From the NCBI GenBank assembly GCA_016197005.1, contig JACPWO010000001.1:474544-538543 (forward strand): a stretch of 64,000 bases of DNA, given 5' to 3'. This DNA comes from Candidatus Anderseniibacteriota bacterium (GTDB lineage: Bacteria > Patescibacteriota > Andersenbacteria > UBA10190). Below are positions 5,084 to 61,713 of the stretch, piece after piece. The position numbers were made by a program, and so were the translations under genes. The notes under the pieces are model-generated. The model was not told the DNA's origin, searched no databases, and saw nothing but the letters and a program-made list of their open reading frames with translations. Position 1 is the stretch's first letter. Every line of letters starts with the position of its first letter.

Positions 5084-5106
5084 TTCGAACTCCTAAAGAA
5101 AAAATG

Positions 5107-5180
5107 TAGGCTCGCTGGGATTCGAACCCAGGACCTCGGCTTTATAAGAGCCGCGCTCTTACCAACTGAGCTACGAGCCT
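5107..5180 (-). tRNA. tRNA with anticodon UAU (Ile-like, decoding AUA)
   Basis: Manual cloverleaf on minus strand: acceptor AGGCUCG/CGAGCCU, D-arm GCUCAGUUGGUAAGAGC, anticodon stem CGGCU/AGCCG with loop CUUAUAA (U33, anticodon UAU, A37), T-arm CUGGG-UUCGAAU-CCCAG, discriminator A. Confidence 0.75.
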
Positions 5181-9707: not shown

Positions 9708-10145
9708 ATGGCTAACAGACATCTATCACGCTCTGTTGCTCTTCAAAGTCTTTTTGAATGGGATGTTCGCGGGCAGAAGAAAAACACTTTGAAAAGCATC
9801 GTGAGTCACAATCTTACTGAGTTTGCGCCGGGTATGGAAGATACGGAATTTATTAATGACCTTGTTCTTGGAACCACGAAGTACCAAGACGAAATAGACA
9901 AACTCATTCAAGAGGCGGCACCAGATTGGCCACTGGAACAAATTACCAATGTTGATCGCAATGTTTTACGCCTTGGTATTTACGAATTGAAATATGCTGG
10001 TGCGGAAGACGTGCCACCGAAGGTAGCAATTAACGAAGCAATTGAACTCGCAAAATCATTTGGCGGCGCCTCCTCGGGAAAATTCGTGAACGGCGTCCTA
10101 GGAACTATTTATAAACAGATGGGGGAACCACGAAAGAATGAATGA
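9708..10145 (+). CDS. nusB: Transcription antitermination factor NusB
   Basis: [22 protein letters not shown] and NusB helical core. Confidence 0.85.
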
Positions 10146-10824
10146 TTTATCAAATCTTGAGAAAAAACTGGGGGCAAAATTTAACGACGAAAATATTCTC
10201 TGGCAGGCAGTAACCCACCGGTCATATCTTAACGAAAACCCAGATTGGAAACTCGATCACAATGAACGATTGGAGTTTTTAGGCGATGCTGTACTCGAAT
10301 TAGTAGTAACGGATCATTTGTACCATCACTACAACTTGCCAGAGGGCGAGCTTACTAACCTTCGCTCGGCGGTGGTGCGAGGAGAAATGCTTTCAAAGAT
10401 CGCAGAAGAGTTAGAAATTGATGATTTTATGCTCATGTCACGAGGCGAGCGTAAAGACACCGGCAAAGCCCGCCAGTATATTCTGGCGAACGCGATGGAA
10501 GCAGTTATTGGGGCGGTTTATTTAGATTCTGGATACGACGCTGCCAAAAAACTCATTGATACTTATATTGTCTCAAAGTTAGCAGCTGTCGTAGAACAAG
10601 GACTGCATATAGATAACAAAAGTCGCTTTCAAGAATTAGCCCAAGAAAAGTTTCGCGTTACTCCTACCTACAAAGTTTTGTCTGAGGCCGGACTTGATCA
10701 CGAAAAACAGTTTGTAGTGGGAGCATTTTTGCAAGATAAGAAGATAGGTGAAGGAGCAGGCAGCAGCAAACAAGAAGCCCAGCAAAAAGCCGCTAAAGAA
10801 GCCTTAATTCAATTGGATGTCTAG
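10138..10824 (+). CDS. rnc: Ribonuclease III
   Basis: RNase III signature [15 protein letters not shown]; C-terminal dsRBD ([16 protein letters not shown]). Confidence 0.9.
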
Positions 10825-11299
10825 CATCATTTTGTGGACCGTAACGACCGTCTTGTTCATTGTCGGCCTAGGAGGAACGGTTATTCCCGGTTTACCTGGG
10901 ATTGGTTTTGTATTCGCTGGAATTTTACTGTATGCCTGGGCCACAAGCTTTACGACGGTAAGTGGAGTTTCCGTCGTGGCTCTCGGTATAGTGGCGCTCG
11001 CAGCGTTAGCCGCTAGCTATCTCGGATCTGCAGTCGGTGCAAAGTATGGGGGAGGTAAGCAAAAAGCAATATGGGGCACCATTTTAGGAGCTTTGATTGG
11101 TGCAACCTTTGGTCCAATTGGAATTTTCGTTGGAGCATTTGTCGGTGGTCTTATTGGAGCACTTCTTGAAGGAAATTCCCATCAACAAGCACTGCGTATT
11201 GCCGCTCTTTCGATTCTTGGAACACTTGGAGCTTCGGTTATTCAATTTTTCCTAGCGCTCGCTATGATCGCCGCATTTCTGGTAGCGGTATTCGTGTAA
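10817..11299 (+). CDS. Gly-rich multi-TM membrane protein (DUF456-like)
   Basis: 160 aa, four hydrophobic helices with GxxxG-rich segments. Confidence 0.5.
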   Translation: MSSIILWTVTTVLFIVGLGGTVIPGLPGIGFVFAGILLYAWATSFTTVSGVSVVALGIVALAALAASYLGSAVGAKYGGGKQKAIWGTILGALIGATFGPIGIFVGAFVGGLIGALLEGNSHQQALRIAALSILGTLGASVIQFFLALAMIAAFLVAVFV

Positions 11300-11326: not shown

Positions 11327-13537
11327 ATGAGGGTGGCTTCCATCGATATCCAAGGATTCAAATCCTTCGCTAAAAAGACTCGCATTGATCTAACCGAGGG
11401 GATAACGGCTGTTATTGGTCCTAACGGCTCCGGTAAAAGCTGTGTTGTCGACGCCGTCAGGTGGGTTCTAGGAGAACAATCAATAAAACAGCTGCGCGGT
11501 AAGGCAAATACTGACATTATTTTTCACGGCAGTGAAGTGCTGCCACCGGCCCGCCGAGCAGAAGTTACGATTACCTTCGATAACGAATCGGGACGGTTCC
11601 CCTTGCCCAGCGCCACGGTCGCAGTAACTCGCCGCCTTACACGTGATGGTGAGAGTAGTTACCAAGTAAATCGCGAAGATGTGCGACTGCTTGATCTCCA
11701 ACAAATGCTGGCGCAAGCCGGAATTGGGGCAAAAACGTTTACGGTAATTTCTCAAGGCATGGTTGACCGTTATATCACCGCCTCACCAGCTGAACGTAAG
11801 GAATTATTTGATGATGCCACCGGCATCAAGCCACTGCAGCTCAAACTCATGGAAGCTCACCGCAAACTGAAGAAAACGCAGCAGCACGCACTAGAAATTG
11901 AAACCACTATTCGTGAGCTGGAGCCTCGTCTTAAAGTTTTGGCACGACAAATAAAACGGTATGAGCAACGAGAAAAAATCCAGGAGGCTTTTACCGTTAG
12001 CCAAGTACAGTGGTTTTCTCATGCCTGGCACAATGTGCGTCAACGTTTGACTGATTTAACAGCCCAGCAAGCTGAAGTAAGTAGGACAATTAAACAAGCT
12101 CGATCGCACCGCGAAACGTTAGAGAAAAAACTTATTACTGGTACGGGAACCCATAATCATGGGCTACACGCAGAGCTAACAACAGCGAATCAGGAGCTAG
12201 CAGCTGCTCAAAAAATATATAACGAGCGCACGCACGCACGAGTTCAACTGGAAAAGCTAATACAAGAAGCGCAGCTACAACTACAGCGAGCAGATAAGGC
12301 TCTTCAGGCCGTTACAACAAGGAGCCAGCCACTCGATTGGGTAGGCAATGTCACTCAACTACTTGAGCGTTGTCAAAAACTCTTACTTAAGATTGCTAAA
12401 AATCCAGCCACGACCACAACTGAAGCAGAGGCTATGGCCGATCAAATTCAAGAAAGCCTACAAACTCTTAAAAATACTTCAGCGGACACATTAATTCGCT
12501 CCGCCGCTGACGAACTCACGCGACCAGCAGCAGAGCTAGCGCGGATCGAGGCAATCCTGGAAGAACGGAAAAGGCAACTAGATGCTCTCCCCCCTCTGGA
12601 GGCACCTTCCTCCGCTCAAGTGGAGAAATTAACAAAACAACTAGCCAACCAGGGTGCCGTGCCTTTATCTGAAGACTCATTGGCTAGTCAGTTATCTTCG
12701 GCCAGACAAAACGAGCTAGCCGCCGAACGAGCAGACGGGGCGCTCGAAGCTGCTCTCGAACAAGCACGCATTGACTTAGCTCAACTGGAAAACGATATCT
12801 TACGGGAGCGCGGATCGCAGGCCTTGTCCACAATGCAACAAAAACCACCAGCTGAAAGTGGTCATACTCCATCTGAAGAAGAGCTACGACAACTCGCTGG
12901 TAAATTAGCGGCCTTAGGCGAACCAGATCCTCTCGTCATTAAAGAATATGGCGAAGTAGAGGAGCGGTATGAAAATCTAACCGCACAAATTGCTGATATT
13001 CGTTCTGCAGCAACCAACATTGTTGATCTCATGGGAACACTCCACACCCAAATGCAGAAACAATTTGGAGAAAAATTTCATGTCATACGCGCGGCTTTTA
13101 CGCGAGCATTTGTCGAACTGTTTGGTGGGGGCAATGCCGAACTTATGTTGATAGAAGAAGGAATAGACATTTCAGTTACTCCTCCCGGGAAAAGATCTCG
13201 ACATATTGGGCTGCTGTCTGGCGGAGAGAGAGCCTTAACATCGCTGGCGCTCTTGATGGCTATTTTAGAAGCGCAGTCGCCGCCCTTTATTGTCCTCGAT
13301 GAGGTTGATGCCGCGCTCGACGAAGCTAACTCTCAGCGGTTCTCTCACCTCTTGAGAGAGCGCTGCCACAACACTCAATGTATTGTCGTTACTCATAACC
13401 GTGAGGCCATGGCCTCAGCCGATGTTCTGTATGGGGTGACAATGCAGCAAAAAGGTGTTTCCAGCGTATATTCGGTAAAACTAGCCGATATTACGGAGAC
13501 GGATATGGGACAAGCTCATCAGGAAATCTCCATTTGA
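11327..13537 (+). CDS. smc: SMC-family chromosome segregation ATPase, unusually short (736 aa), no recognisable hinge
   Basis: N-terminal IQGFKSFA + Walker A GPNGSGKSCVVDAVRWVLGE; C-terminal LSGGERALTSLALLMAIL signature and FIVLDEVDAALDE Walker B; coiled-coil-like middle. Confidence 0.75.
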   Translation: MRVASIDIQGFKSFAKKTRIDLTEGITAVIGPNGSGKSCVVDAVRWVLGEQSIKQLRGKANTDIIFHGSEVLPPARRAEVTITFDNESGRFPLPSATVAVTRRLTRDGESSYQVNREDVRLLDLQQMLAQAGIGAKTFTVISQGMVDRYITASPAERKELFDDATGIKPLQLKLMEAHRKLKKTQQHALEIETTIRELEPRLKVLARQIKRYEQREKIQEAFTVSQVQWFSHAWHNVRQRLTDLTAQQAEVSRTIKQARSHRETLEKKLITGTGTHNHGLHAELTTANQELAAAQKIYNERTHARVQLEKLIQEAQLQLQRADKALQAVTTRSQPLDWVGNVTQLLERCQKLLLKIAKNPATTTTEAEAMADQIQESLQTLKNTSADTLIRSAADELTRPAAELARIEAILEERKRQLDALPPLEAPSSAQVEKLTKQLANQGAVPLSEDSLASQLSSARQNELAAERADGALEAALEQARIDLAQLENDILRERGSQALSTMQQKPPAESGHTPSEEELRQLAGKLAALGEPDPLVIKEYGEVEERYENLTAQIADIRSAATNIVDLMGTLHTQMQKQFGEKFHVIRAAFTRAFVELFGGGNAELMLIEEGIDISVTPPGKRSRHIGLLSGGERALTSLALLMAILEAQSPPFIVLDEVDAALDEANSQRFSHLLRERCHNTQCIVVTHNREAMASADVLYGVTMQQKGVSSVYSVKLADITETDMGQAHQEISI

Positions 13538-13570
13538 AATTTTTTGCCCCTTACGCTAGGATCCACTCAC

Positions 13571-13906
13571 ATGTTAAAGCTTCGACTACAACGACGCGGC
13601 AAACGAAACTACGCCACTTATCGAGTGGTTGTTACAGAAGCCGGCGCTCCAATTAAAGGACGATTCATTGCCGACGTTGGCCATTACAACCCACACACGA
13701 ATGTATTTAGCGTTGACGCCGATGTGGTAAAAATGTGGCTTGGACGTGGTGTGCAAGCGTCTCCGACCGTTCATAATTTACTTGTAAATCACAAAGTTAT
13801 TGACGCCCCTAAAGTAACGAGCTGGCGTCCTAAGAAAAAAGCAACCGAAGCCGCTCCGACTGCTGCAATCGCGGCCCCTGCCGCTCAAGCGGAGAAAAAG
13901 GCGTAA
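13571..13906 (+). CDS. rpsP: 30S ribosomal protein S16 with Ala/Lys-rich C-terminal tail
   Basis: MLKLRLQRRGKRNYATYRVVV N-terminus typical of bS16. Confidence 0.85.
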   Translation: MLKLRLQRRGKRNYATYRVVVTEAGAPIKGRFIADVGHYNPHTNVFSVDADVVKMWLGRGVQASPTVHNLLVNHKVIDAPKVTSWRPKKKATEAAPTAAIAAPAAQAEKKA

Positions 13907-13976: not shown

Positions 13977-14357
13977 ATGGCAGATGATCGCCAATCTCAC
14001 GACGTTGAGTTTGTAGAATATGTGGTCAAATCAATCGTTGACCATCCTGATGATGTAAAGTTAGACCGCGCTATTGATGAAATGGGTGTTCTCATTACCC
14101 TAACTGTTAACCCAGAAGATATGGGTCAAGTGATCGGTCGCTCCGGTGCTACCGCTAAATCTATCCGTACTCTTTTGCGTGTTATCGGAGCTCGCAACAA
14201 TGCTCGCGTTAACCTGAAAATCAACGAACCAGAAGGTGGACGAAAGCCAGCTGCTGACACACCAGCGGTTGCTCCTACTGCTTTGCCTGTTGAGGCTCCA
14301 GCCCCTGATGCACCAAAGCCTTCTGTAGAAGAGGCAATCGACGACCTCGACCTCTAA
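13977..14357 (+). CDS. khpA: KH-domain RNA-binding protein (KhpA/YlqC-like)
   Basis: KH motif VIGRSGATAKSIRTLLRV; conserved position after rpsP. Confidence 0.75.
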   Translation: MADDRQSHDVEFVEYVVKSIVDHPDDVKLDRAIDEMGVLITLTVNPEDMGQVIGRSGATAKSIRTLLRVIGARNNARVNLKINEPEGGRKPAADTPAVAPTALPVEAPAPDAPKPSVEEAIDDLDL

Positions 14358-14448: not shown

Positions 14449-17010
14449 ATGAAATTCCTGTACCGCGTATTTTCTCACCTTCTCCTTGCAACGCTCTTGT
14501 TGCCGGTTCATACTCTACACGCACAGCAAACACCTGAACTATCTCCAAGCTTGTTTGTCCGAGATATTGTAGCTTCTGCTGAAAACGAAACCATTTCTGG
14601 CTCATTCCGCGCTATTAGCCAAAGCGACAACATTGTTGGCGGTATCTACTACCAGATGGCAGTGCTTTCCACCCTGCCAGAAGCGCCAGAGGGAGAATTA
14701 ATTGCTGATGATCCGATTATATACAGTCAAGAAGTAGTTCCCGCTAATCTTAGCTTCCAACCAAAAGAAGAGCAGGTAGTTAATTTTTCTCATGCGTTAC
14801 CGACAGTCCCGACTGGCACTTATCGATTTCGTGTTCAGCTGACAACAGCAAACGGCCGAGATCTCGGTTGGTGGGATCAAGATGTTGTCTTAACTTCCGA
14901 TTCATCTGGATTTATTGATCTCAGACCAATAGCTGTCTTGGTTGATAGTGTCGATCCTCGCGTTAAGCTTTTTGATCAACAAGGGAGTGGTGACAACAAT
15001 ATTAATGAATTCTATCCGGAATTAACTGATTCCTTAAATCCCCCAGAAGCGAATCGATCGGAATGGGGACCGCTCGAAGGCGTTAATGTCGACGCTGGAG
15101 CTACTGCCCAATTGCGTGCTGATGCTACTAACATTGGCACCGGCTCATTGACTGGCACCATTACAGCTTCGGTTAAACGAGACCTCACCACCACGACGAC
15201 GGCCGAGTCTAAAGTGTTACGTGCAATATCACTCACACCGAACCAAACAGAAACTCTTACTATTCCATTTACGTCCCCGCAAGCTGCTGGTGCCTATGAA
15301 ATATTTTTGATGGTTCGAGATGAGAATAACAATTTGGTTAGTTCTATTGGTGAATACCGCCTGGTTGTTCGTGGTCCTTCAGCATCTGTCATCAGTGTGC
15401 TCACGCAAAAATTGAGCGTAACCAAAGGTGATCCGATTGAGTTCACCGTGAATATAGTTGGCCCAGCTGATGGTGAAACAACAATCGCCGGAACAGCAGA
15501 GGTTTCATTACTTGATGGCGCAACGGTGGTCAGTAGCCAAAGTACGGCCGTACAACTTGCGATGGAACCTATAACCATAGAGGGAAGCCTTGTCCCCGAT
15601 CGCGATATTACTGGTAACCCCAAGTTACGAGTAACGCTTAAGGATGGCACCGGAAATATTCTTGATACATATGAAGTCGAGTTTCCGCGCGATGGAATAG
15701 CAGCCGCATCAACATCGCAGGCAACGGATCCCAAGGGGTCCAGCACAAAAATCATTATTGCTGTTGGACTCGCTCTTCTCCTGCTGCTCCTAGGTCTTTT
15801 CTACCGGTATCGTTCTCCCAAGACTCCTATTCCTCCCGTTGCAACAACGACTCTGCTTCTTATCCTGTTAGTCGGTGGGTTATTCACAACAAATCAAACC
15901 GGGAAAGCGAACCATGAATACACTAGTAATTTGGCGGTGGGTAATTATTTAAAAAAGACTAGTGATGGCGGCGGAACAGAGACTTTCATAAACTCGCCGA
16001 TGCACAATGAAACCTTTGTGGGAGGACAGACTATCTCATATAGTGCTTCTTCTACTTTTTGGAACTGTAATAATACAGCACATCGATATAACTATTGGAA
16101 TGTAAACTTGGCTACTTCAGGAGGGAAAGTATCATCTCACGAACAAGCAAGTAGTTGGAATAAGGTACTGGCTTTTCCGACTGTTGCGTTTGGGAAAGGT
16201 AAAGTAACAAGAACGGTAAGCGGGACATTTACATTGTCTCCGTCATATCCTGGAAATTCAACAACTATGTGGAATGAAATATGGTGGAACGGTCATGGAA
16301 GTTATAGGTTGCGTAGTATCATGACGTGGCTCAACGTTAGCAGCCCAACACCTACAGCCACACCAACCGTAACTGCTACTCCGACCCCAACACCTACAGC
16401 CACACCAACTCCCACGCCGACAGAAACTACTCCTGTTCAAAGTCCGTCGCTTGTTTTCACTGCTGACCCAACATCTGTTCCGTATGGAGACAAAACCACC
16501 CTCCAGTGGTCAACAACGAATACAACGAGCTGCTGGGCCGAGCAAGGATGGACTGGCTGGAAAAATCATTTAGGTGGTACTGAGCTTTCTGCCGAGCTTA
16601 CCCAGACTACAACATTCAGTCTTGAGTGCTGGAATGCGGTGGGAGTATCAAGCGGTAAAAAGTTTGTTACTGTTCAGGTTACTCAACCTTCTGAACCCAT
16701 GCTCGTATTTACTGGCGACCCTTTATCTGTACCTATTGGCGGGACAAGCACACTTACGTGGCAAGCAACAAATGCCACCGCTTGCACGGCTAGTCTCGGC
16801 TGGAGCGGTAATAAAAATAACGTCAGCGGTACACAAGTTACTGCACCCCTGACTCAAAGCACAACCTACGCGCTATCATGTCAAAACGCCGCTGGGGTAT
16901 CGACGGGACCAAAGTTTGTAACCATTACGGTCATTGGCGGTCCACCTACACCCACACCCACGCCAACGCCTACGCCCATAGACGATGGACCATTCCAAGA
17001 AGAAGAATAA
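14449..17010 (+). CDS. Large cell-surface protein: signal peptide, extracellular domain, central TM hairpin, PT-rich linkers and two tandem ~85-aa repeat domains
   Basis: N-terminal signal peptide MKFLYRVFSHLLLATLLLPVHTLHA; two hydrophobic helices ~aa 437-480; PTPTATPT linkers; repeats SLVFTADPTSVPYG.../MLVFTGDPLSVPIG... each ending KFVTVQV/KFVTITV. Confidence 0.7.
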   Translation: MKFLYRVFSHLLLATLLLPVHTLHAQQTPELSPSLFVRDIVASAENETISGSFRAISQSDNIVGGIYYQMAVLSTLPEAPEGELIADDPIIYSQEVVPANLSFQPKEEQVVNFSHALPTVPTGTYRFRVQLTTANGRDLGWWDQDVVLTSDSSGFIDLRPIAVLVDSVDPRVKLFDQQGSGDNNINEFYPELTDSLNPPEANRSEWGPLEGVNVDAGATAQLRADATNIGTGSLTGTITASVKRDLTTTTTAESKVLRAISLTPNQTETLTIPFTSPQAAGAYEIFLMVRDENNNLVSSIGEYRLVVRGPSASVISVLTQKLSVTKGDPIEFTVNIVGPADGETTIAGTAEVSLLDGATVVSSQSTAVQLAMEPITIEGSLVPDRDITGNPKLRVTLKDGTGNILDTYEVEFPRDGIAAASTSQATDPKGSSTKIIIAVGLALLLLLLGLFYRYRSPKTPIPPVATTTLLLILLVGGLFTTNQTGKANHEYTSNLAVGNYLKKTSDGGGTETFINSPMHNETFVGGQTISYSASSTFWNCNNTAHRYNYWNVNLATSGGKVSSHEQASSWNKVLAFPTVAFGKGKVTRTVSGTFTLSPSYPGNSTTMWNEIWWNGHGSYRLRSIMTWLNVSSPTPTATPTVTATPTPTPTATPTPTPTETTPVQSPSLVFTADPTSVPYGDKTTLQWSTTNTTSCWAEQGWTGWKNHLGGTELSAELTQTTTFSLECWNAVGVSSGKKFVTVQVTQPSEPMLVFTGDPLSVPIGGTSTLTWQATNATACTASLGWSGNKNNVSGTQVTAPLTQSTTYALSCQNAAGVSTGPKFVTITVIGGPPTPTPTPTPTPIDDGPFQEEE

Positions 17011-17016
17011 ATAAAA

Positions 17017-17048
17017 CAATCCCGCCATAAACGGGGTTGTTTTCTTTT
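17017..17048 (+). terminator. Terminator-like hairpin (CAATCCCGCC-loop-CGGGGTTG then T-run)
   Basis: Stem-loop followed by TTTTCTTTT after surface-protein stop. Confidence 0.45.
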
Positions 17049-17072
17049 ATAATGCCCGCTAGGTTCAGTGGT

Positions 17073-17732
17073 ATGAGGATTGATATTCTAACTCTGTTTC
17101 CGCAAGCAGTTGAACCATACCTTGAAACAAGCATTATTGGCCGAGCCAAAGAAGCCCAGGTTATTGATATCCGTACCTGGAATATTCGCGATTATACGAC
17201 TGGCAAACATCGAACTGTTGATGATAGCCCGTATGGCGGTGGAGCAGGAATGGTAATGAAAGTAGAGCCAATTGATCTGGCGCTAAAAGCTGCGGTACAC
17301 GGACAAGACAATACCAAAAAGAAGATAGTAGTCTTGGCCGCTCGAGGCACCCCTTTTACCCAACAGAAGGCACTGGAATACGCCACACTGGATCAGCTGA
17401 TTCTTATCTGTGGTAGATATGAAGGAATTGATCAACGCGTTGCTGATCACCTAGCGGATGAGGAAATTTCCATCGGCCCGTACGTTCTGGCAGGAGGCGA
17501 GTTGCCAGCCCTAGTAGTGATGGAGGCCGTTGCCCGCCACATACCGGGCGTCCTTGGCAATCCCGAATCTTTGTCTGAGGAATCTTTTACCCAGGATGCT
17601 ATTGAGTATCCACAATATACTAAACCGGAAGAATATAACGGCTGGAAGGTGCCACCAGTTTTGCTTTCTGGTGATCACGCCACTATTAAAGCGTGGCGAG
17701 ATAAAAGCCGACATGATAATTTAAAATCATGA
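17073..17732 (+). CDS. trmD: tRNA (guanine37-N1)-methyltransferase TrmD
   Basis: MRIDILTLFPQ N-terminus; SPOUT-fold motifs (DDSPYGGGAGMVMK, ICGRYEGIDQRV). Confidence 0.9.
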   Translation: MRIDILTLFPQAVEPYLETSIIGRAKEAQVIDIRTWNIRDYTTGKHRTVDDSPYGGGAGMVMKVEPIDLALKAAVHGQDNTKKKIVVLAARGTPFTQQKALEYATLDQLILICGRYEGIDQRVADHLADEEISIGPYVLAGGELPALVVMEAVARHIPGVLGNPESLSEESFTQDAIEYPQYTKPEEYNGWKVPPVLLSGDHATIKAWRDKSRHDNLKS

Positions 17733-18202: not shown

Positions 18203-18408
18203 GATCAATACGATCCTTAACGGGTTGATACAATCCAAACAAAGAACACGCACTATTCTCAGTCAAAGTTCCAGACCAAAAGTGGTCACAGAGAATGTGC
18301 CCTCTTTTTTGTTTTAGGGGTCATGATCGTTTAACAATTTGCTACGGAATTATACGTTAAATTACGTTCTAGTCTGCGTATTTATACGCGACTACAAACG
18401 TCTTTCTA

Positions 18409-19878
<1,470 letters not shown>

Positions 19879-23410: not shown

Positions 23411-24382
23411 GTCTATTAGCTATATGCAGAAAGCTTTTAACTGCAAGACCCCACGAAGCGGCTAGGCCGAAATCTTTTCGAGCCCACCAAAACCGCTTCC
23501 TCTGGACAAGCGGTTTTTTAGTAGCCGCTACAACACAAGCCATCGATAGAATAATGGTTCTCAACAATTATTCCTCTGTGGCTTGTTTGATTGAACACTG
23601 CCAATTGAATAAGCAATATCATTGCAATTGAACGATCACCAATAGTAGTAATTAGAAATCAAAAACAAGGAGCGATGTTGATCAGCGCTTGGGGCGCGGA
23701 TACGCATCGCTAGCTATACAAAAATAGCAAAGCATGCAGCTCATGACGGTGTGAATGAAATTCATACACCGTAAGGGTATACAGGTGGATGCCTTGGCAA
23801 TGGACGACGATGAAGGACGTGGCAGGCTACGATAAGCTGCGGGGAGGTGCCTAGCAACCGGCGATCCGCGGATGTCCGAATGGGGAAACCCGGCTTTGTG
23901 AATAACGAAGTCACTTTCTTACTGCAAGGTAGGATAGAGTAAACCTAGCGAACTGAAACATCTTAGTAGCTAGTGGAAAAGAAAAGAACGATCTTTGTTT
24001 CTCTTTAGAATTCCGTTCTCTCTTTCCCGTTTCCTGCAAAGGAAATTGGATTTGGGAGAACTGGTAATTTTACTGTTGAAGACAACGATTACATTCCCTT
24101 AGTAGTGGCGAGCGAAACGGGAACAGCCCAAACTTACATTTATGTAAGTGTTGTAGGGTATCGTTATATAGATAAGAGATATGTGCCTAGTAGAACGGGC
24201 TGGAATGCCCGGCCATAGAAGGTGAGAGCCCTGTAAACGAAAGGTATATTTCTTAACTTACGATATTCCTGAGTAGGGCGGGACACGTGAAATCCTGCCT
24301 GAACCCGGGAGAACTATCAAAATCCTCTGTGTTTTGGCTTCGGCCAGAACATAGTGGATCTCCCAAGGCTAAATACGACCAT

Positions 24383-24429
<47 letters not shown>

Positions 24430-25866
24430 GGAAGGGGAATGAAATAGACCTGAAACCGTATACCTACATCGAGTCGGAGGCTGCTCGCAAGAGCGGCTGA
24501 CGGCGTGCTTTTTGCAGAACGAACCACCGAGTTCGCTGTACACGGCTTAGGTTAAGTCTCATTCGAGACGAAGCCAGAGCGAAAGCGAGTGTTAATAGCG
24601 CGATTATGTCGTGTGCACGAGACCCGAAACCAGGTGATCTACCCATGAGCAGGGTGAAGTGTCGCGAAAGCGTACATGGAGGCCCGAACCGGTTGGCCGT
24701 ACAATACCATCGGATGACTTGTGGGTAGGGGAGAAATTCCAATCGAACCTGGAAATAGCTGGTTCTCGCCGAAATAGCTTTCGGGCTAGCCTCGTATAAT
24801 GAACTAATCAGTGGTAGAGCACTGCAAGGGATCTTCCGTCCTTTTGGATGGGGACCCTAGCAAACTCCGAATGCTGGTTAGGAATGTACGGGAGTCAGAA
24901 CGCGGGGGCTAAGCTCCGCGCTCAAAAGGGGAACAGCCCAGATCGTAATTTAAGGTCCCTAAATCTTACCTAAGTGGGAAAGGTAGTGGGATTGCTAAGA
25001 CAGCCAGGCAGTTGGCTTAGAAGCAGCCACCTGTTAAAGAAAGCGTAACAGCTCACTGGTCAAGCGATCCTGCGCCGAAAATGTAACGGGGCTCAAGGTA
25101 AGTACCGAAAATACGGAGTATTGTCTTTTAAGACAAAATTGGTAGGCGAGCGTTTCAGTCTGCGTCGAAGGTGTACCGTGAGGTATGCTGGAGCGGCTGG
25201 AAGTGAGAATGGTGGTATGAGTAGCAAGACACAAGGTGAGAGTCCTTGTCACCGAAAGCCTAAGGTTTCCTGGGCAATGTCGATCATCCCAGGGTTAGTC
25301 GGTCCTAAGGCGAGGCCGAAAGGCGTAGTCGATGGACAGCAGGTCGATATTCCTGCACCGTCTATAGCGTTCACAAGGCTTGACGGATCGTTAGAGCATG
25401 TCAGGACATATGACTTATCCTGCAGCAACTATTAGACAGAGTGTTTTGGTAAATCCGGACACTTGTTACGTTGAAAGTTGTTGGGCGAGCGCGGCCTTCG
25501 GGCCAAGCCGCTATATGGGAAAACGGTCCCCGGAAAAGCGTCGTGTGATTTCCGCTATGGGCGTCCGTACCGCAAACCAACTCAGGTAGGCAAGTGTGAG
25601 AGTACTAAGGTGATCGGGAGAAACCTCGTTAAGGAACTCGGCAAAAAAGCAGCCGTACGTTCGCAATAAGGCTTGCCCTGTCTTTATGGCAGGGCCGCAG
25701 CGACTGATCTCTGGCGACTGTTTAACAAAAACACAGGTCCCTGCTAACTCGTAAGAGGATGTATAGGGGCTGACGCCTGGCCAGTGTCGGAAGGTCAATC
25801 CTGGGGGTGAAAGCTCTCAGGCCAAGCCCCGATGAACGCCGGCCGTAACTATAACGGTCCTATGGT

Positions 25867-26166
25867 AGAGGAATTTGGCCACGATACGTCGTGGACTTTG
25901 CTGCCATAGTAAAATTGAGCTATATGCTGGAAACTCTGGTGTACTTAAAGAGAAATCTGACAAGTGCAGCCGTCCATTAGGACGAGCTACCAGACAATCA
26001 GCAGGAAATCCGCAAGGAGATCCTCAGAGACTACACGCTCAACCCAACGTATAAATCTTTACGTTGCGGAAGATATAGTCCGATCTGCATGGCGACATGC
26101 AGAACTCTACAGAAATGGAGAGTCACGTAAACTTAACGAAAGTAGATAAGTACGTCGTAACATTCG
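25867..26166 (+). mobile_element. Group I intron (ORF-less, ~300 nt) in 23S at the site equivalent to E. coli ~L1917-1925 (GGTCCTATGGT | AGCGAAATTCC)
   Basis: Exon sequence on both sides reconstitutes the conserved ACGGTCCTA(A/T)GGTAGCGAAATTCC; upstream exon ends in U and intron ends in G; intron contains P7-like strands CAGAGACTACACG and AAGATATAGTCC. Confidence 0.75.
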
Positions 26167-26738
26167 AGCGAAATTCCTTGGCACGTAAGTTGTGTCCCGC
26201 ACGAATGGCGTCACGACTGGAGAACTGTCTCAACGAGGTACCCGGTGAAATTGCAATGTCGGTAAAGATGCCGCCACCCTGCGGCTAGACGGAAAGACCC
26301 CGTGAAGCTTCACTACAGCTTGATATTGGCACGTCGAACTCAATGCTCAGTATAGGTGGGAGACTTTGAACCAGGTGCTTCGGCGCCTGGGGAGTCACAA
26401 TATGAGATACCACCCTTTGTGTTTAACGCGTCTAACGGCGCAGTGCAATCCACTGCCCGGACAGTGTCTGGCGGGTAGTTTGTCTGGGGCGGATTCCTCC
26501 TAAATTGTAACGGAGGAGCCTATAAGGTTACCTAGGTCCGGATGGAAATCGGACTCGTCGTGTAAAGGCACAAGGTAGCTTAACTGCGAGGCGTACATGC
26601 CGAGCAGGCGCGAAAGCGGAGCTTAGTGAACCGACCGTTCTCGAATAGAAGAGCGGAAGATCATCGGATAAAAGTTACTCCGGGGATAACAGGCTGGTCT
26701 CGCCCAATAGTCCACATAGACGGCGAGGTTCGGCACCT

Positions 26739-27093
26739 TAATTAAAATCGGGGTGCCCAAGGAGTGATCCTTGAAAGTCTGAGTTATAAGTCTTTCTGAA
26801 TAATTACAGATAAAAATCGAATAGTAAGTAAACCAGCTAAAAACGGTGAACTCTTACCTATCTTGATGCATTAAAAAGATAGAAGACAACGCCGTGGGAA
26901 GCATGAATCCAAGGTGGACTCATGCCCCGTAACGACTGACTCGAAAGAGGAGGCCCACAAAACACAGTTAAGGAAATCACTGTGGGCAAAAGGCTGGCTC
27001 TCACTAATAAAAAGATGTTATGGAATTTCCTACGACATCTCGTGAGATGAAGGCATAGTCTAATCTTCTTGGAAACAAGAAGTAGAACGACAG
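26739..27093 (+). mobile_element. Second putative group I intron (ORF-less, ~355 nt) in 23S at the site equivalent to E. coli ~L2500 (GGCACCT | CGATGTCGGCTC)
   Basis: Flanks reconstitute the conserved GGCACCTCGATGTCGGCTC; 5' exon ends in U and insert ends in G; insert contains GGCATAGTC (P7 3'-strand-like). Confidence 0.6.
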
Positions 27094-27577
27094 CGATGTC
27101 GGCTCAACCTATCCTGGAGGGGAAGCACCTTCCAAGGGTGTGTCTGTTCGCCACTTAAAAGGTTACGTGAGCTGGGTTCAAACCGTCGCAAGACAGGTTG
27201 GACCCTATCTGTCGCAGGCGTGGAAACTTGAGGAGCGTCCACAATAGTACGAGAGGACCTTGTGGGACCGACCTCTAGTGTACCAGTTGTCCCGTTCTGG
27301 GGCATCGCTGGGTAGCTATGTCGGGCTGGTGATAAGTGCTGAAAGCATCTAAGCACGAAGCCCACTCCAAGATCAGGTTTCAATAACGAGACTCCTAGAA
27401 GACTACTAGGTTGATAGGCAGGAGGTGTACGCGCAGTAATGCGCTCAGCCGACCTGTACTAATGTTCCAGTTGTATGATTCTTACCACCGACATGAGCAA
27501 ATTGCTTTGTTAATAGCTAGCGATGCGTATTTACGCAGTCGTTTAATTAATGATATTGCGTCGTTTCAATTCAGAGA

Positions 27578-27694
<117 letters not shown>

Positions 27695-27719
27695 TTTTCT
27701 GAATTGAAACCCTTCAAAC

Positions 27720-44860: not shown

Positions 44861-46720
44861 ATGTCCTTCTTTCGCCCTGCTTTTTATGCTGTTGGCTTCC
44901 TAATAGTATTTGGCATTCTTGTTGCCGTTCCGAAAGCACACGCAGATCCACATGCAATGTTCTATACCGCAATTGGTCAACAGCAACTCTTTTTTAACGT
45001 TTTAGCAGCCTTGGACCAGGCAGATTATGTTGAGCCATCTACCAACACAACTGGAACTGATTCAGGAAGTTCTCGGGAAGAACTTATAAAAGAGCGTGAT
45101 GAGGCAGCTAAAGCACTTACTGAAGGTGAAACTGGATATCCAGCTGAAGATTTTCCAGTACTAAAAGCAACTGAGAGCGATCTAGCTTCAGTCTTAACTC
45201 GTAATATTTCACTTGAGGGACAAGATATTTGGACTAGTTATTTACTACGGGAAGCTGTGAAGGAAGAGGAGCGACGAGAACATTTTGAAAAACTCACTGG
45301 CATCTTATGTAACATAAGTCAGGGAGCATGTTCTGGTGAAAAAACTCCAAGAGAAGCGTTTGAAACAAGCCCTTTTGAAAAGGCTGTTAATTCCATTACA
45401 AACGGTGCAGTTGGCGCTCTCTTTTCAAGTAACGATCCTAATAGTTACGATCAAGAACGTCGCCGTAAGGCTTTAGAAGATCAGTTCAAAGGAGACGCAG
45501 CTGAATCTATTCCATACCGTGCGGATATCGCTGCGCTAGAGTCAGCCACAAGTGGAGATGTAACAAAAAAAACAACAATTACACAGCTCAAAAATGCTCA
45601 GCTCCGCGGACTACGAAACCCTGTGATAAATCCAAACGCTTTAAGTGGTATTGTTTTTGACCCCGAGACACAAGAACCCTCCCTTGCGTTTGATGAAAGC
45701 AGTGAAGAGTATGATGTTTCTGCATTTACTGGTTCTATTAGTAATTTCCTAACTCTTAATCAGGCGCTTGGTTCAGCCGCGTCAGAGGGAGCAAATAAGA
45801 GCATCGCAAGCAAAAACAGCACAACAGAAGACGGGGGGTACTTAGCAGAAACTATTCAAGCTGCTCGTCCTGCTGGGAACGGAGCAATTGGAGAACTATC
45901 GCCGCGAATACTTCGTCCAGCTGGTGCGGGTCCAGCTGTATTATCAGGAGTAATTTCTAGCTTAGGAATTTCTGAAGGTATTCCCTCTGATGTCAAATTA
46001 AGCGACAAGGAAGACAGCAAGGACGAAGACTGTGATATTAAAAAGGACGGGATCTGTGTAAAGAATAACAGCCCGATTTGTTTTGTAGGCGGCAGCTCTC
46101 TAACCGTTTCGTTTACCCTGAGTAGTACTGGCGGAGAGTCAAAAGCAGGAGTAGTAGCTTTATACCCAACCCAGCACGATGGCGAAATAGGAGGACCAAT
46201 TCGCGATCCGTCTTACTCTCCTCCGTCTAATAATTTTTACGGTAGCAGCGGAAGATCTTGGGGTAATCAATCTATTGGTAATCAAACATACTCTGTATCC
46301 GGAACAGCACAAGTAAACGGTGTACTTGGATATCGCATCCTCTTTAGATACGGTCAAAGCAGTTCCGTTGCTGCAACTTTAATTATTCCTGAGTGCAATG
46401 CCACTACTAGAAGTACCGATCAAAGTCGAATCTTTGGAGCCCAAGACTCGGTCACTGTTAGTCCTTCTTCACCTACTCCAGAAACAATCAATTCACCTGT
46501 AAATGGTTCGGTTTTAGGTACACGAGAAGACTTAAGGAGTGCGGACAATGATTATCTTCCTTTGCATGAGGAAAGTTATGAAGCTCAGAGCTTACTGCAA
46601 GCCCTATCACCGCTTCATTATCAACGCAAAAAACCTGGAAATTCTAGTTCCGGTGGTACCGTCAGTGGGGCAAGCACTACTTCTTATTTTCAGCAGGCGA
46701 TTACTAACTACTTCAAATAG
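44861..46720 (+). CDS. Secreted hypothetical protein (619 aa)
   Basis: N-terminal signal/anchor (FYAVGFLIVFGILVAVPKAHA), Ser/Gly-rich, no known motif. Confidence 0.5.
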   Translation: MSFFRPAFYAVGFLIVFGILVAVPKAHADPHAMFYTAIGQQQLFFNVLAALDQADYVEPSTNTTGTDSGSSREELIKERDEAAKALTEGETGYPAEDFPVLKATESDLASVLTRNISLEGQDIWTSYLLREAVKEEERREHFEKLTGILCNISQGACSGEKTPREAFETSPFEKAVNSITNGAVGALFSSNDPNSYDQERRRKALEDQFKGDAAESIPYRADIAALESATSGDVTKKTTITQLKNAQLRGLRNPVINPNALSGIVFDPETQEPSLAFDESSEEYDVSAFTGSISNFLTLNQALGSAASEGANKSIASKNSTTEDGGYLAETIQAARPAGNGAIGELSPRILRPAGAGPAVLSGVISSLGISEGIPSDVKLSDKEDSKDEDCDIKKDGICVKNNSPICFVGGSSLTVSFTLSSTGGESKAGVVALYPTQHDGEIGGPIRDPSYSPPSNNFYGSSGRSWGNQSIGNQTYSVSGTAQVNGVLGYRILFRYGQSSSVAATLIIPECNATTRSTDQSRIFGAQDSVTVSPSSPTPETINSPVNGSVLGTREDLRSADNDYLPLHEESYEAQSLLQALSPLHYQRKKPGNSSSGGTVSGASTTSYFQQAITNYFK

Positions 46721-46726
46721 AGTTAC

Positions 46727-48808
46727 TTGATGCCATCACTCAAAAAACTTTACCGACCACTACAGCTCCTTCTGATTGGAATGAGTTTTGCTTTTCCGGG
46801 TGGTGCCTCAGCAGAAGAAGTTTACGACATCAGAAACGCAGAACCCATGTACGTCCTTACTTACAATAAGGCAACTCTTATTAGCCAGTACGGGTGTCAA
46901 GAAGTACCAACAGAAGATCGAGTTAATGATTTAGGGTTTGTTGCCTTTGTTATTCCTGATGGTCAAGTGCTAATTAAAACAGTAGAAAGTGAAACCGGGC
47001 AAAATGCTCAAGCAACCAAAAAAGTGTTTGCGTTTGCGTGGGCAATGTGCACAGAAGCACAAGCAGAGGCGGCTTATAAATCACAACCTCAAATTGAAAC
47101 CGGTATCACGCTGGAAGGTGTCCAATATTACGCAGCACAAATAATAAGTTCGGTATTGTGGATGGTAGCCGAAATCGGATTATGGCTACTACAACTTGCC
47201 AGTAAGCTGCTTTTTCCGGTTTTAACCGCGGGGGCTTTTATTACGAACGATATCGTACAAAAGGGGTGGCCTTTCATCCAAGGCTTGGCAAACCTTGGCT
47301 TTATCCTAGCGTTACTAGCAATAGCAGCTTTAACTGTCCTGCGTATTGACGTTGGCGGCGGAGTAAAGCGGCTGCTTCCTCGCCTTTTGATTGCTGCACT
47401 GCTTATTAACTTCAGCCTTGTTATAGGCGGGGTTATTATCGATTCCTCTCGAGTTGTTATGGCTATTTCTTGGCAAATCCTTAAAGGTAGTTCAGGGGCA
47501 ACTCCAGATAAATTAGGGGCTCGGATCATAGATAATTCTCAGCTTATGAAGAATGTTTTTTGTCCGGTAGGATCAGGGGCAAATGCATCATGCGTAGGTG
47601 GTAGCTTCGAGCTTCAGGGGAAAATATATACAACCTGGGATGGTGTTTTAAAAGTTGCAGAGGCAACAATATTTATTTGGGTCATCACAGGAGCCTTGCT
47701 CGTGCTGGCAATTATGCTCTTCATACGCCACGTGGCTCTATTACTACTCCTTATAGTTTCTCCCTTGGCGTATCTGGCTGCCGCGATGCCAGCAGCTGGT
47801 AAATTTGCCTCGCAATGGTGGGAAAATTTCTTGCGATACGTTATTTATGGTCCGGTAGTCATGCTTATTCTCACAATCATTGCTGCCTTAACCGAATCCG
47901 AGAGTGCGGGTGCTGGAATCGATGTAAAATCTTCGTCACTGCGAAATATTATGGAAATGTCGGTGGTTACAGTCTTGATCATAGTAGCAGCAACTGCGGG
48001 TAAATATGTTGGAATGTACGGAGCGGGAGCAGCAGTCGGATTTGTGAAGGGTTTACCAGGACGCGCAGCTAGAAATCCCAAGAAAACTGCCGCCTTAGCT
48101 GCTGGCATTGCTACCGGAGGGCTTGGGTTAGTTCCTAGTCTAGCCGCTGCCGGCGGAACAGCCTATGGAATACGACGCACACAAGATGCCTGGAAAAAAT
48201 TCCAAACTGGTAGAAAGAAAACCCAAGAAAAGAAAGAAAAAGCCTCCTTTATGCAAAGAGCGGGCGAAGTCGGTTTTCGCAAAGCAACCAAAGAAGCAAG
48301 AGGTAGAAATGAAGCATTCAGAGACGCTCGAGTGCAGGGAGATCTTAGTCGCTTAAGTAGAGCTGAACTTACTACCAACCCAGCTCTTTCTCCAGAAAAA
48401 CTAGCTAATCCTTCATTCCTTACGGGGTTAGGAAAATCTAATATTCAAGAAATATTGAAACGAGGAACCAGGAGCCAGCGTGTCGGAATTGCAGCCAGTG
48501 TTGGATCTATGAAGCAAGAATCACCTGCCATGAAGACCGTAATTGACGGGGTAATTAACCAACAAACATTTGATGTTTACAACAGTGCTCAACAAGTTAT
48601 TAATGACCCTACTGCCACCCAAGGAGCAAAAGACAAGGCTGCAAATGAAATTGATGGTATTAATCGTGTTCTGCGCAGTTTGGCAAACAACGAAAAACTT
48701 GTTGATAAAATGGATGCAGGTCAGATACAGCAAATGCTAGAACACGAAGATACGAAAACCACAGATGATCTTTTAAAGAGCCTTAGTAAGACACGGTCTA
48801 GCGGATAA
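46727..48808 (+). CDS. Polytopic membrane protein, VirB6/TrbL-like candidate (T4SS-like inner-membrane component) with Lys/Ala-rich C-terminal tail
   Basis: Signal peptide, ~120-aa extracellular domain, >=6 TM helices, ~230-aa hydrophilic tail; lies next to a VirB4-like ATPase. Confidence 0.5.
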   Translation: MMPSLKKLYRPLQLLLIGMSFAFPGGASAEEVYDIRNAEPMYVLTYNKATLISQYGCQEVPTEDRVNDLGFVAFVIPDGQVLIKTVESETGQNAQATKKVFAFAWAMCTEAQAEAAYKSQPQIETGITLEGVQYYAAQIISSVLWMVAEIGLWLLQLASKLLFPVLTAGAFITNDIVQKGWPFIQGLANLGFILALLAIAALTVLRIDVGGGVKRLLPRLLIAALLINFSLVIGGVIIDSSRVVMAISWQILKGSSGATPDKLGARIIDNSQLMKNVFCPVGSGANASCVGGSFELQGKIYTTWDGVLKVAEATIFIWVITGALLVLAIMLFIRHVALLLLLIVSPLAYLAAAMPAAGKFASQWWENFLRYVIYGPVVMLILTIIAALTESESAGAGIDVKSSSLRNIMEMSVVTVLIIVAATAGKYVGMYGAGAAVGFVKGLPGRAARNPKKTAALAAGIATGGLGLVPSLAAAGGTAYGIRRTQDAWKKFQTGRKKTQEKKEKASFMQRAGEVGFRKATKEARGRNEAFRDARVQGDLSRLSRAELTTNPALSPEKLANPSFLTGLGKSNIQEILKRGTRSQRVGIAASVGSMKQESPAMKTVIDGVINQQTFDVYNSAQQVINDPTATQGAKDKAANEIDGINRVLRSLANNEKLVDKMDAGQIQQMLEHEDTKTTDDLLKSLSKTRSSG

Positions 48809-49413
48809 TGACTCTTATGCCGTCTACTAACTTCTCTGGTATACCTGCCGCATCCTTGGTAATGATTCCCGAGGATAGACGCGCAGAATATATTCGAGCG
48901 CTACGAGCGCTACCTGTAACTTTACTTAAGGCTACTACTTCCGCAAAAACTGGTGCCTACATACTAGGTCTAGCAAAAACGCATGATATCCCCTTGGCAC
49001 AAGTAGAGAATATTTCTTTTGCTATATTTGAAATATTAATTGGCAAAAAAATATTAGTTCAGTTACCTAGTATTTTTTCAACCGAGCTACAGGTTGCTAA
49101 TGACAAAGCTCAGACAATGGCAAGAGAAGTAGAACGTGACTTAATTGCTCCTATATCGTCCGAATTAAATCGATATCTAGCTGATCAAAAAAAAATACAA
49201 GGAAGCATAAGTTCTAAGATTGGAAAGCAAAAATCTAAGCCAGTAGCTACTTCTCCAGCGTTGTCACCAACAACCAACTCAAAACCGGAAATTAGAACAT
49301 TTTCCACCCCTCCATCATTAAAGCGAATACCAAATAAACCTGCAATTCCTCCAAACATTCTTGATCTAAAAAAGAAGTGGGAACAACCAAAGCCCCCACC
49401 AATTCCCAACTAG
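48808..49413 (+). CDS. hypothetical protein, Pro/Lys-rich C-terminus
   Basis: 201-aa ORF translationally coupled to the upstream gene (overlapping stop/start). Confidence 0.4.
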   Translation: MTLMPSTNFSGIPAASLVMIPEDRRAEYIRALRALPVTLLKATTSAKTGAYILGLAKTHDIPLAQVENISFAIFEILIGKKILVQLPSIFSTELQVANDKAQTMAREVERDLIAPISSELNRYLADQKKIQGSISSKIGKQKSKPVATSPALSPTTNSKPEIRTFSTPPSLKRIPNKPAIPPNILDLKKKWEQPKPPPIPN

Positions 49414-50102
49414 CGTTCTGTTTCCTCAATTTTTAGCTGTCCAACGTCGTGTAATCTCTGATTGTGGGATGTCATTGGGTTATAGAAGTTATAAAACAGC
49501 TCTAAAAGTTCAGGGGTTTTTAAAGGTACGGCCCGTAGTCCAATTGCTCGCAGACCGCTAGCCACTTGCTCAACCCGTTGATACAACTGGGCACGATAAT
49601 GTCCAAATTCTTGCTCCGTAATTTTCTGGTTCCCGGTTGCTGCTTTTGCTCCTTTAAATATACGAGCAAAGAATCCTTCTTTGGAGGCTTGAGTAACTGA
49701 AAATGGGATAGTTACAAAAAATGTTTTTGTCATAATACTACTGTCTTTTACTAATTCACTGACGAAGTTAATATATTCTCCCATTTGAACTCGGAGCAGC
49801 TCATTTTGTTGTTTTTCCCGTAGTACCTTGACTTCTTCGAGATAGGGGGTGATATCTGCTTTGCGAGAAGAAATAGTTATCTGAATAGGATAATCAAGAG
49901 AGTTGAGAAAGTCTTGGTAGGCAAAGATAATAGCACTCTGTTCGTCTTCAGACTTTAGGGCGAAGTTAATCGAGGAAACCATAATGACTGCTCGCATTGT
50001 CCCATCATTCAATACTAGAACTCCATCTCGAATTTCTTTAAGACGCACCAGTACCTGGGAGGGTTTCCCTTTCTTCTCTGTTGATTTCATTTCATCGACC
50101 AT
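49410..50102 (-). CDS. hypothetical soluble protein
   Basis: 230-aa ORF divergent from the VirB4-like gene; no motif recognised. Confidence 0.45.
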   Translation of the reverse strand: MVDEMKSTEKKGKPSQVLVRLKEIRDGVLVLNDGTMRAVIMVSSINFALKSEDEQSAIIFAYQDFLNSLDYPIQITISSRKADITPYLEEVKVLREKQQNELLRVQMGEYINFVSELVKDSSIMTKTFFVTIPFSVTQASKEGFFARIFKGAKAATGNQKITEQEFGHYRAQLYQRVEQVASGLRAIGLRAVPLKTPELLELFYNFYNPMTSHNQRLHDVGQLKIEETER

Positions 50103-50106
50103 AGTT

Positions 50107-50553: not shown

Positions 50554-50600
50554 CGTCTTTGCATTATAGCAGAAACTAACGTGTGGTATGATGCAGAGAT

Positions 50601-52454: not shown

Positions 52455-52463
52455 GACTAGATA

Positions 52464-52886: not shown

Positions 52887-52888
52887 TT

Positions 52889-60192: not shown

Positions 60193-60227
60193 ATTCGTAC
60201 AGTAAACAGGCGCTATACGCCCGTCAA

Positions 60228-61569: not shown

Positions 61570-61578
61570 AAGCGATTC

Positions 61579-61713
61579 TTAGACAGGTGCTATTCGAGCG
61601 CGCTTCTTGGCACGACGACGATTCAATACACGAACGTGCTTGCGAGCCCGGGCTAAGAAGCCATGGCGGCGGGCGCGACGACGTTTGCTAGGCTGGTATG
61701 TTCTTTTAGGCAT
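61579..61713 (-). CDS. rpmH: 50S ribosomal protein L34
   Basis: MPKRTYQPSKRRRARRHGFLARA...RRRAKKRARI matches bL34 (44 aa); internal start of the longer ORF. Confidence 0.9.
   Translation of the reverse strand: MPKRTYQPSKRRRARRHGFLARARKHVRVLNRRRAKKRARIAPV

Follow-up and report, generated by a model that had tools for sequence, protein, structure and literature searches.

The window analyzed here is a 64,000-nucleotide stretch of DNA, and all nucleotide positions follow its numbering. It comes from a metagenome-assembled genome (MAG) of Candidatus Andersenbacteria, a member of the candidate phyla radiation (CPR) with a tiny genome. It contains an smc gene that is predicted to encode a short-armed Smc protein without a hinge. 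The gene sits after rnc and a DUF456 gene and before rpsP and khpA, while nusB and rpmF lie upstream and trmD lies downstream. The first-pass annotation, made from the sequence, had placed an open reading frame (ORF) of 736 amino acids (aa) at 11327 to 13537, and the reading frame was found exactly there. It has an ATG start, no internal stops, and a stop codon at 13535 to 13537. The SMC head motifs that had been reported at both ends were all located, namely GFKSFA (residues 10 to 15), GPNGSGKS (31 to 38), LSGGERALTSLAL (630 to 642), and FIVLDEVDAALDE (654 to 666). The protein is 450 aa shorter than canonical Smc ORFs of 1,186 aa, where about 400 aa had been estimated.

The center of the protein (residues 168 to 570, 403 residues) contains 13.4% Leu, 13.4% Ala, 10.9% Glu, 9.7% Gln, and 3% Gly. 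No 10-residue window in it holds four or more Gly. The cysteines lie solely at positions 39, 349, 680, and 685, and there is no CxxC motif. This composition and an all-helical structure model agree with the earlier description of an Ala/Gln/Leu-rich, coiled-coil-like center with no Gly-rich signature. The annotated reading of the whole, a compact SMC without a recognizable hinge, is supported by profile searches, structure prediction, family conservation, and synteny. The observation is real, and that reading of it is correct.

The window derives from a MAG, which leaves room for a gene truncated by misassembly, frameshift, or internal deletion; the first-pass annotation had named a frameshift or assembly truncation as what would overturn it. 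Neither was seen. The identical protein is recorded on two contigs, one of which is 575,969 bp long and is labeled "MAG: Candidatus Andersenbacteria bacterium"; it is annotated only as an "AAA family ATPase." A one-off truncation or frameshift therefore does not explain its shortness. There are also 236 hinge-less homologs shorter than 950 aa across NCBI, ENA, JGI, and Logan assemblies, with conserved synteny. Truncation is excluded because the frame is uninterrupted and the family is large and coherent, and the artifact explanation is already refuted by the family data.

Textbook SMC anatomy includes the hinge, which forms the constitutive dimer interface, binds DNA, and has been proposed as a DNA gate. 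Pfam model PF06470 (SMC_hinge) gave no match in the protein even at E ≤ 10. It gave none in about 24 further hinge-less relatives (561 to 1,043 aa) at E-value thresholds of 1, 0.01, or 0.001. As a positive control, a 1,036-aa Anaerolineae Smc was matched at 1e-24. A local hidden Markov model (HMM) of the hinge was built from twelve canonical Smc proteins, with a hinge region of about 185 residues. It recovered the hinges of three held-out Smc proteins at 1e-30 to 1e-55. It found no match in the protein at E ≤ 10, and its best E value among 120 homologs and all short ORFs at the loci was 0.25. A hinge detected by profile search had been named beforehand as evidence that would speak against the annotation; neither PF06470 nor the local HMM found one.

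The set of the 251 nearest homologs draws in part on 1.84 billion proteins, represented by clusters at 50% identity. The local HMM matched 1 of the 237 homologs that are shorter than 950 aa, versus 11 of the 14 that are 950 aa or longer, and left 236 short homologs without a hinge. The exception is P0248 (794 aa). It contains the first half of a hinge only (PF06470 positions 2 to 61 of 116) and is possibly an intermediate. A profile of the family made from 93 sequences was also searched against PDB sequences; no hinge was among the best 60 matches, below which weak matches to hinge-only chains could lie.

An AlphaFold2 model of the monomer was computed with the 93-sequence alignment and had a mean predicted local distance difference test (pLDDT) score of 87. 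Residues 168 to 599 are all helical, with no strand. The helices span residues 168 to 272, 278 to 332, 338 to 358, 364 to 383, 386 to 419, 430 to 440, 451 to 505, 517 to 530, and 535 to 599. Searched with Foldseek, the whole model came closest to 5xei (2e-31), a structure of an Smc head together with its coiled coil and joint. The head-proximal neck and the joint are conserved in the family. The arm runs for about 195 residues to the tip loop at residues 359 to 363, or roughly 29 nm; lengths for this family are conversions at about 0.15 nm per residue. The arm of Bacillus subtilis Smc has 344 residues and a length of about 47 to 49 nm (PMC5344682, PMC5526789).

The place of the hinge is taken by a two-helix hairpin of about 45 to 50 residues, including a 5-residue loop. 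An AlphaFold2 model of the excised residues 296 to 424 (pLDDT 87) contained four helices. It had no significant Foldseek neighbor in the PDB. Its best matches, all at E ≥ 0.1, were long helical hairpins, among them the dimerization domain of CheA, p85 iSH2, and a coiled-coil fragment of Smc. Since the tip is two helices with no significant structural neighbor, it holds no cryptic globular domain. Directly after the tip, Andersenbacteria-type proteins carry the best-conserved central motif, LExPLQxVARLxAIEQER, in which P400 is near-invariant.

The family ranges from 561 to 1,033 aa in length, with peaks near 610 and 750. In a MAFFT alignment with 18 homologs of 581 to 627 aa, the ~610-aa subclass was without exactly residues ~278 to 332 and ~386 to 450. 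The rest was kept, both tip helices included. The two missing segments are similar in length, and each belongs to a different strand of the antiparallel coiled coil that the model predicts. Their boundaries coincide with the low-confidence breaks of the model at 272 to 278 and 441 to 450. This matched deletion in the N- and C-terminal arms is an independent confirmation of the fold-back (antiparallel) topology, and it shows that arm length is modular. Lineages gain or lose the matched N- and C-arm segments as a pair. The short-class arm has about 135 residues, or roughly 20 nm. The tip hairpin is retained across all length classes. In short-class proteins, its tethers are variable linkers with a high content of Pro, Thr, Ser, and Ala. 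The short extreme of the family is P0191 (561 aa), an Smc whose heads are complete and whose arms are very short.

A hinge that is present yet too diverged for profile detection is very improbable. CPR proteins are often very divergent, and one CPR2 fragment carries the legacy database name "SMCs flexible hinge domain protein," but that fragment itself has no PF06470 match at E ≤ 10. The stretch between the paired arm segments measures only about 50 residues, versus the 185 residues or so of the hinge region in the local HMM, and AlphaFold2 makes them two helices with no strands. The ~610-aa class leaves still less room.

The family assignments identify the protein as an Smc. The Pfam domain SMC_N spans residues 3 to 712 (1.2e-67). 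The NCBIfam equivalog model for prokaryotic Smc, TIGR02168, scores 589.9 bits against a curated cutoff of 567.35. The B. subtilis Smc head structure 3zgx aligns with both head halves (residues 4 to 208 and 531 to 723) at 7e-97, and identity to B. subtilis Smc head structures is about 50% over the aligned head regions. In the alignment of 93 homologs, G31 to S38, R57, Q143, S631 to E634, D658, E659, D665, and H690 are invariant. The head of each chain is complete and apparently catalytic. Coordinates of the domains and of the neighboring genes are given in Table 1.

TABLE 1. Features of the smc gene, its predicted protein, and its neighborhood (residue numbers refer to the 736-aa protein)
Feature	Position	Strand	Basis
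nusB	9708-10145	+	Assigned from Pfam-annotated genes of syntenic homolog loci
rnc	10138-10824	+	Assigned from Pfam-annotated genes of syntenic homolog loci
DUF456 membrane protein	10817-11299	+	Pfam
smc, 736-aa hinge-less short-armed SMC	11327-13537	+	ORF; SMC_N, TIGR02168, and 3zgx matches
N-terminal head half, residues 1-167; Walker A GPNGSGKS, residues 31-38 (11417-11440); Q-loop Q143	11327-11827	+	Alignment with B. subtilis Smc head; pLDDT >90
Ascending (N-terminal) coiled-coil arm, residues 168-332; helices 168-272 and 278-332, low-confidence break 272-278	11828-12322	+	AlphaFold2
Optional N-arm module, residues ~278-332, missing from the ~610-aa subclass	12158-12322	+	Local MAFFT alignment
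Arm tip in the place of the hinge, residues 333-385; "DW" turn, helix a1 338-358, loop 359-363, helix a2 364-383	12323-12481	+	AlphaFold2, full protein and excised tip
Descending (C-terminal) arm, residues 386-570; break 441-450; joint-like loops 506-516 and 531-534	12482-13036	+	AlphaFold2, conservation
Optional C-arm module, residues ~386-450, missing from the ~610-aa subclass; pairs with the N-arm module	12482-12676	+	Local MAFFT alignment
C-terminal head half, residues 571-736; LSGGE 630-634 (13214-13228); Walker B FIVLDE 654-659 (13286-13303); D-loop DAALD; H-loop H690	13037-13534	+	Alignment with B. subtilis Smc head
rpsP	13544-13906	+	Assigned from syntenic loci
khpA-like KH protein	13977-14357	+	Pfam
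trmD	17037-17732		Pfam

Other SMC-like families were considered and rejected. The RecN models TIGR00634 and PRK10869 scored 41.3 and 33.5 bits against cutoffs of 407.85 and 418. Rad50 models scored about 58 to 64 bits against cutoffs of 700 to 1,087, and a CxxC hook, as in Rad50/SbcC, is absent. There is also no conserved Cys/His set that could form a zinc hook, and C349 is only about 55% conserved. A MukB-, MksB-, or JetC-type system does not fit the flanks, which are rnc, the DUF456 gene, and rpsP, and no MukF/E, MksF/E, or JetA/B partner was found in five homolog loci.

The order nusB-rnc-smc-rpsP-khpA-trmD is kept for members of 625, 711, 736, and 770 aa. It mirrors the B. subtilis order, rnc-smc ... 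rpsP-khpA-trmD. The gene is retained at the smc position in every CPR smc locus examined. One Andersenbacteria-type hinge-less Smc, P0124 (1,340 aa), has its Walker A region split by an intein that carries a LAGLIDADG homing endonuclease (Intein_splicing, residues 69 to 624). Inteins usually occupy conserved sites of important proteins, and we count this intein and the retention of the locus as signs of selection on the gene.

The protein resembles RecN, SbcC, and Rad50 in being short (about 740 aa) and hinge-less and in combining an SMC-type head with a coiled coil, which could point to a DNA repair ATPase as opposed to a chromosome-organizing Smc. The protein does show weak NCBIfam and Pfam matches to Rad50, RecN, and SbcC_Walker_B. 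The scores run the other way, however, with Smc above its cutoff and RecN and Rad50 far below theirs. The CxxC hook is absent, and sbcD or mre11 is not among the neighbors. Every member examined has the gene in the smc slot between rnc and rpsP, and over the aligned regions the heads share about half of their residues with those of B. subtilis Smc. We consider a repair ATPase highly unlikely. The first-pass annotation had left the choice open between a short-armed SMC and a RecN/SbcC-like variant; the first alternative is supported, and the second is not, given these scores and the missing CxxC. The sequence scores and the smc slot argue that the gene is the positional and sequence ortholog of smc and not a RecN- or SbcC-like paralog. 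We are highly confident that it encodes a genuine hinge-less Smc ortholog.

The spacing between khpA and trmD varies. In the window an 853-aa ORF (14449 to 17010, plus strand) lies between them. It contains an N-terminal and a later hydrophobic stretch and linkers rich in Pro and Thr. Homolog locus L005 contains another large insert in this gap, and L003 contains none. In homolog locus L001, two ORFs downstream of smc have no Pfam match, and their position is not conserved.

Our best explanation, held as a whole with a probability of about 0.6, is that the gene encodes the organism's Smc ortholog, a condensin-type ATP-binding cassette ATPase at the ancestral smc locus. The globular hinge has been lost and the arms have become short, here and in many of the other Patescibacteria lineages sampled, and the chains would be joined at the tip. 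The protein is most likely the condensin of the cell and would dimerize through the hydrophobic tip hairpin. Two chains would meet at their tips, where the broad a/d/e hydrophobic stripes of the hairpins would pack against each other to form a four-helix bundle. This bundle would be a minimal constitutive dimerization module, taking over what the hinge, or the zinc hook in Rad50, does. When ATP drives the heads together, probably with a kleisin as the bridge (ScpA-ScpB, from genes located elsewhere in the genome), a small ring or rod would close, and that ring or rod would organize the chromosome. The 575,969-bp contig suggests that this chromosome is small. The heads and arms would make the DNA contacts normally ascribed to the hinge, or these contacts would be missing.

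Tip-mediated dimerization, taken as a part of this explanation, is about an even bet. Conserved strongly hydrophobic positions have a density of 0.40 to 0.45 in tip helices a1 and a2, where they cover three heptad positions (a/d/e), versus 0.17 to 0.33 in the arm helices, where they cover the narrower a/d. Because each tip helix has two hydrophobic faces, the hairpin needs more partners than its own mate. A four-helix bundle of two hairpins is the simplest solution. Hinge and hook swaps make tip dimerization functionally plausible. B. subtilis grows normally when the hinge of its Smc is swapped for the unrelated zinc hook of Rad50, and arms shortened to some length windows still work (PMC5344682). 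Yeast Rad50 with a MukB hinge replacing its hook is functional in DNA repair (PMC6969161).

Several points weigh against dimerization at the tip or against the kleisin-bridged ring. Sequence conservation of the tip is low, with about 30% column identity. The resemblance to the CheA dimerization hairpin is not significant (E = 0.1). The hairpin may merely extend the arm or fold back onto its own arm. ScpA and ScpB were not found by Pfam among about 30 ORFs of the window. ScpA/ScpB probes run with phmmer found nothing among 7,317 ORFs from the window, its extensions, and the 10 kb on either side of a dozen other CPR smc loci. The probes were validated against PDB ScpA and ScpB from several phyla (1e-61 and 1e-65).

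ScpA and ScpB were also not found in the extensions of the window (about 10 kb to the left and 0.8 kb to the right; about 85% of the ~576-kb genome lies outside this search) or in the Pfam-annotated neighborhoods of five homolog loci. Canonical Smc loci are likewise without scpAB near smc, and adjacency is not expected. Since scpAB does not normally lie beside smc and most of the genome was outside the search, the negative says little either way. We lean toward cooperation of the hinge-less Smc with ScpAB. If ScpAB were absent as well, chromosome organization in the CPR would be still more unusual.

A real hinge-less Smc whose tip does not dimerize is unlikely but is the strongest competitor. 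Contact between two chains would be limited to the ATP-engaged heads, whether or not a kleisin takes part, or the chains would zip together along the arms. The protein would then be a head-based DNA clamp or bridge and not a tripartite ring or loop extruder. The poor conservation of the tip, its nonsignificant hairpin matches, and the lack of a kleisin gene in the DNA examined would all fit. Sussfeld et al. also speculate on another function or DNA-binding mode for hinge-less SMCs (PMC12153180). Such a protein would not account for a hairpin that is kept in every length class while the arm modules vary. An extra conserved hydrophobic stripe would be needless on a solvent-exposed hairpin end, and a conserved neck and joint that couple heads to arms are hard to explain for mere appendages.

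Collinear hinge-less forms were retrieved from MAGs labeled Uhrbacteria, Azambacteria, Saccharibacteria, Patescibacteria UBA2100, and CPR2. The CPR2 form is 1,033 aa long and has long arms. Hardly any taxon names are recorded for the class of 850 to 930 aa. Relatives also occur in MAGs labeled "uncultured Gammaproteobacteria bacterium." Those at L007 and L012 are complete and collinear (about 740 to 760 aa), and those at L016 and L021 are close relatives cut at a contig end. Since L007 and L012 group with Uhrbacteria-type heads, the taxon labels are probably wrong.

The heads were placed in a rough neighbor-joining tree (337 columns, 50 bootstraps). The CPR proteins fall into several well-supported clades, none of which holds a hinge-bearing Smc. 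The Andersenbacteria clade (100% bootstrap) stands apart from Actinobacteria. A 782-aa hinge-less Smc of a "Thermoleophilales" MAG (L014) groups with hinge-bearing actinobacterial Smc (94%). The 924-aa Smc of Leptospira interrogans groups with Firmicutes-type Smc. From these separate placements of the CPR, L014, and Leptospira proteins, the hinge was probably lost at least three times, in the CPR, in an actinobacterial clade, and in Leptospira.

The Leptospira protein comes from L. interrogans ATCC 43642 (L069:10001-12775). It has no match to PF06470 or to the local HMM, and its center reads as continuous coiled coil. It looks like another hinge-less Smc, in a tractable cultivated spirochete.

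The window contains other features of interest. The rRNA genes are unlinked, with 16S at 18406 to 19876 and 23S at 23760 to 27482, a gap of about 3.9 kb, and 5S at 27579 to 27695. The gap between 16S and 23S holds a tRNA-Ile(GAT), a helix-turn-helix gene, a 478-aa ORF, an opposite-strand tRNA-Ala, and an MscS-like gene. The 23S gene spans 3,723 nucleotides versus 2,925 in the model and contains a group I intron at 25851 to 26102. A tRNA-Ile with anticodon TAT (UAU) lies at 5106 to 5180 on the minus strand, which to our knowledge is unusual for bacteria. Bacteria normally read AUA via a lysidine-modified CAU tRNA.

The replication-origin neighborhood lies at 59722 to 63305. It contains dnaA (61923 to 63305, plus strand; DnaA_N, Bac_DnaA, and Bac_DnaA_C), divergent from minus-strand yidD-yidC-jag, and smc is thus about 48 kb from dnaA. 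A type IV secretion- or conjugation-like cluster occupies 44861 to 54503, with a weak TraC_F_IV match, PrgI, and a weak TraG_N match. Inside it, at 50601 to 52454, is a gene for a 617-aa P-loop_TraG/DUF87/AAA_10 ATPase. Outside the window, about 4 kb past its left end, the minus strand carries a free-standing LAGLIDADG_3 homing-endonuclease gene beside rplS (L087:8267-8938).

A wider claim is held tentatively, at a little short of even odds. Many Patescibacteria lineages (Andersenbacteria, Uhrbacteria, Azambacteria, Saccharibacteria, UBA2100, and CPR2) may have as their sole Smc a protein in which a metal-free hairpin of about 45 residues has replaced the hinge. It would dimerize as a four-helix bundle and carry exchangeable paired arm modules (561 to 1,033 aa). 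If this is true, it would be a natural minimal SMC, and neither the hinge fold nor hinge-DNA contacts would be needed for bacterial chromosome organization. A hairpin-for-hinge design in hundreds of related proteins indicates that the hinge is dispensable or replaceable in nature. Engineering in B. subtilis had shown that the dimerization domain's fold is replaceable (PMC5344682); evolution appears to have made the same substitution, and every member sampled from several large bacterial lineages apparently carries it. A natural SMC this compact, about 610 to 740 aa with arms of roughly 20 to 29 nm, would suit structural and single-molecule tests of which parts loading and loop extrusion require. 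There is also a blind spot. Surveys that look for head plus hinge, and annotation pipelines, miss such proteins, many of which are labeled merely "AAA family ATPase."

Our literature search found no paper linking SMC hinge loss or ScpAB to the CPR or Patescibacteria. In a Saccharibacteria Tn-seq annotation table, the rows as far as gene SEML1_0347 contain no ScpA or ScpB entry, which is an uninformative negative. The only description of natural hinge-less SMCs that we found is that of Sussfeld et al. 2025 (PMC12153180) and concerns another phylum. It reports a "hinge-less" SMC clade in ocean metagenomes, assigned to Actinobacteria. CPR sequences are among its seeds; in the text available, CPR SMCs are not described as hinge-less, and a tip hairpin, modular arms, and synteny are not described. 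Burmann et al. 2017 report a minor natural arm-length mode at 163 aa (PMC5344682). Their pipeline required a hinge alignment, and natural hinge-less forms were therefore excluded by design. As far as we found, neither the distribution on the scale of the CPR nor the tip formed by a helical hairpin nor the modularity of the arms has been described so far; the protein family itself is public but unrecognized.

The protein shares features with several known systems. RecN is likewise a compact SMC-like ATPase whose coiled coil is short and which lacks a globular hinge. RecN dimerizes through its coiled-coil tip. The protein differs from RecN in its score (41 bits against a cutoff of 408 with the RecN model) and in its gene context. 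It differs from Rad50/SbcC in having no CxxC zinc hook, no Mre11/SbcD gene nearby, and scores (about 63 bits for Rad50) far under the cutoffs.

The clade of Sussfeld et al. 2025 resembles the CPR family in having an SMC head and coiled coil, no hinge, and no CxxC. The L014 protein is probably of that kind. The clade differs in belonging to another lineage and another loss event, a comparison made through L014.

One of the closest known systems is Smc of B. subtilis Smc-ScpAB (TIGR02168, COG1196). The two share the full set of head motifs, the neck, the joint, an antiparallel arm, and a locus on the rnc side, upstream of rpsP-khpA-trmD. They differ in that the CPR protein has a helical hairpin for the globular hinge and arms of about 195 residues as against 344 (PMC5344682). 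The engineered Mini-Smc and Smc(Zh) of B. subtilis are similar in design, with shortened arms or an unrelated small dimerization element for the hinge, and these constructs support growth (PMC5344682). They are artificial and keep a hinge or a zinc hook, whereas the replacement in the CPR protein is a metal-free hairpin.

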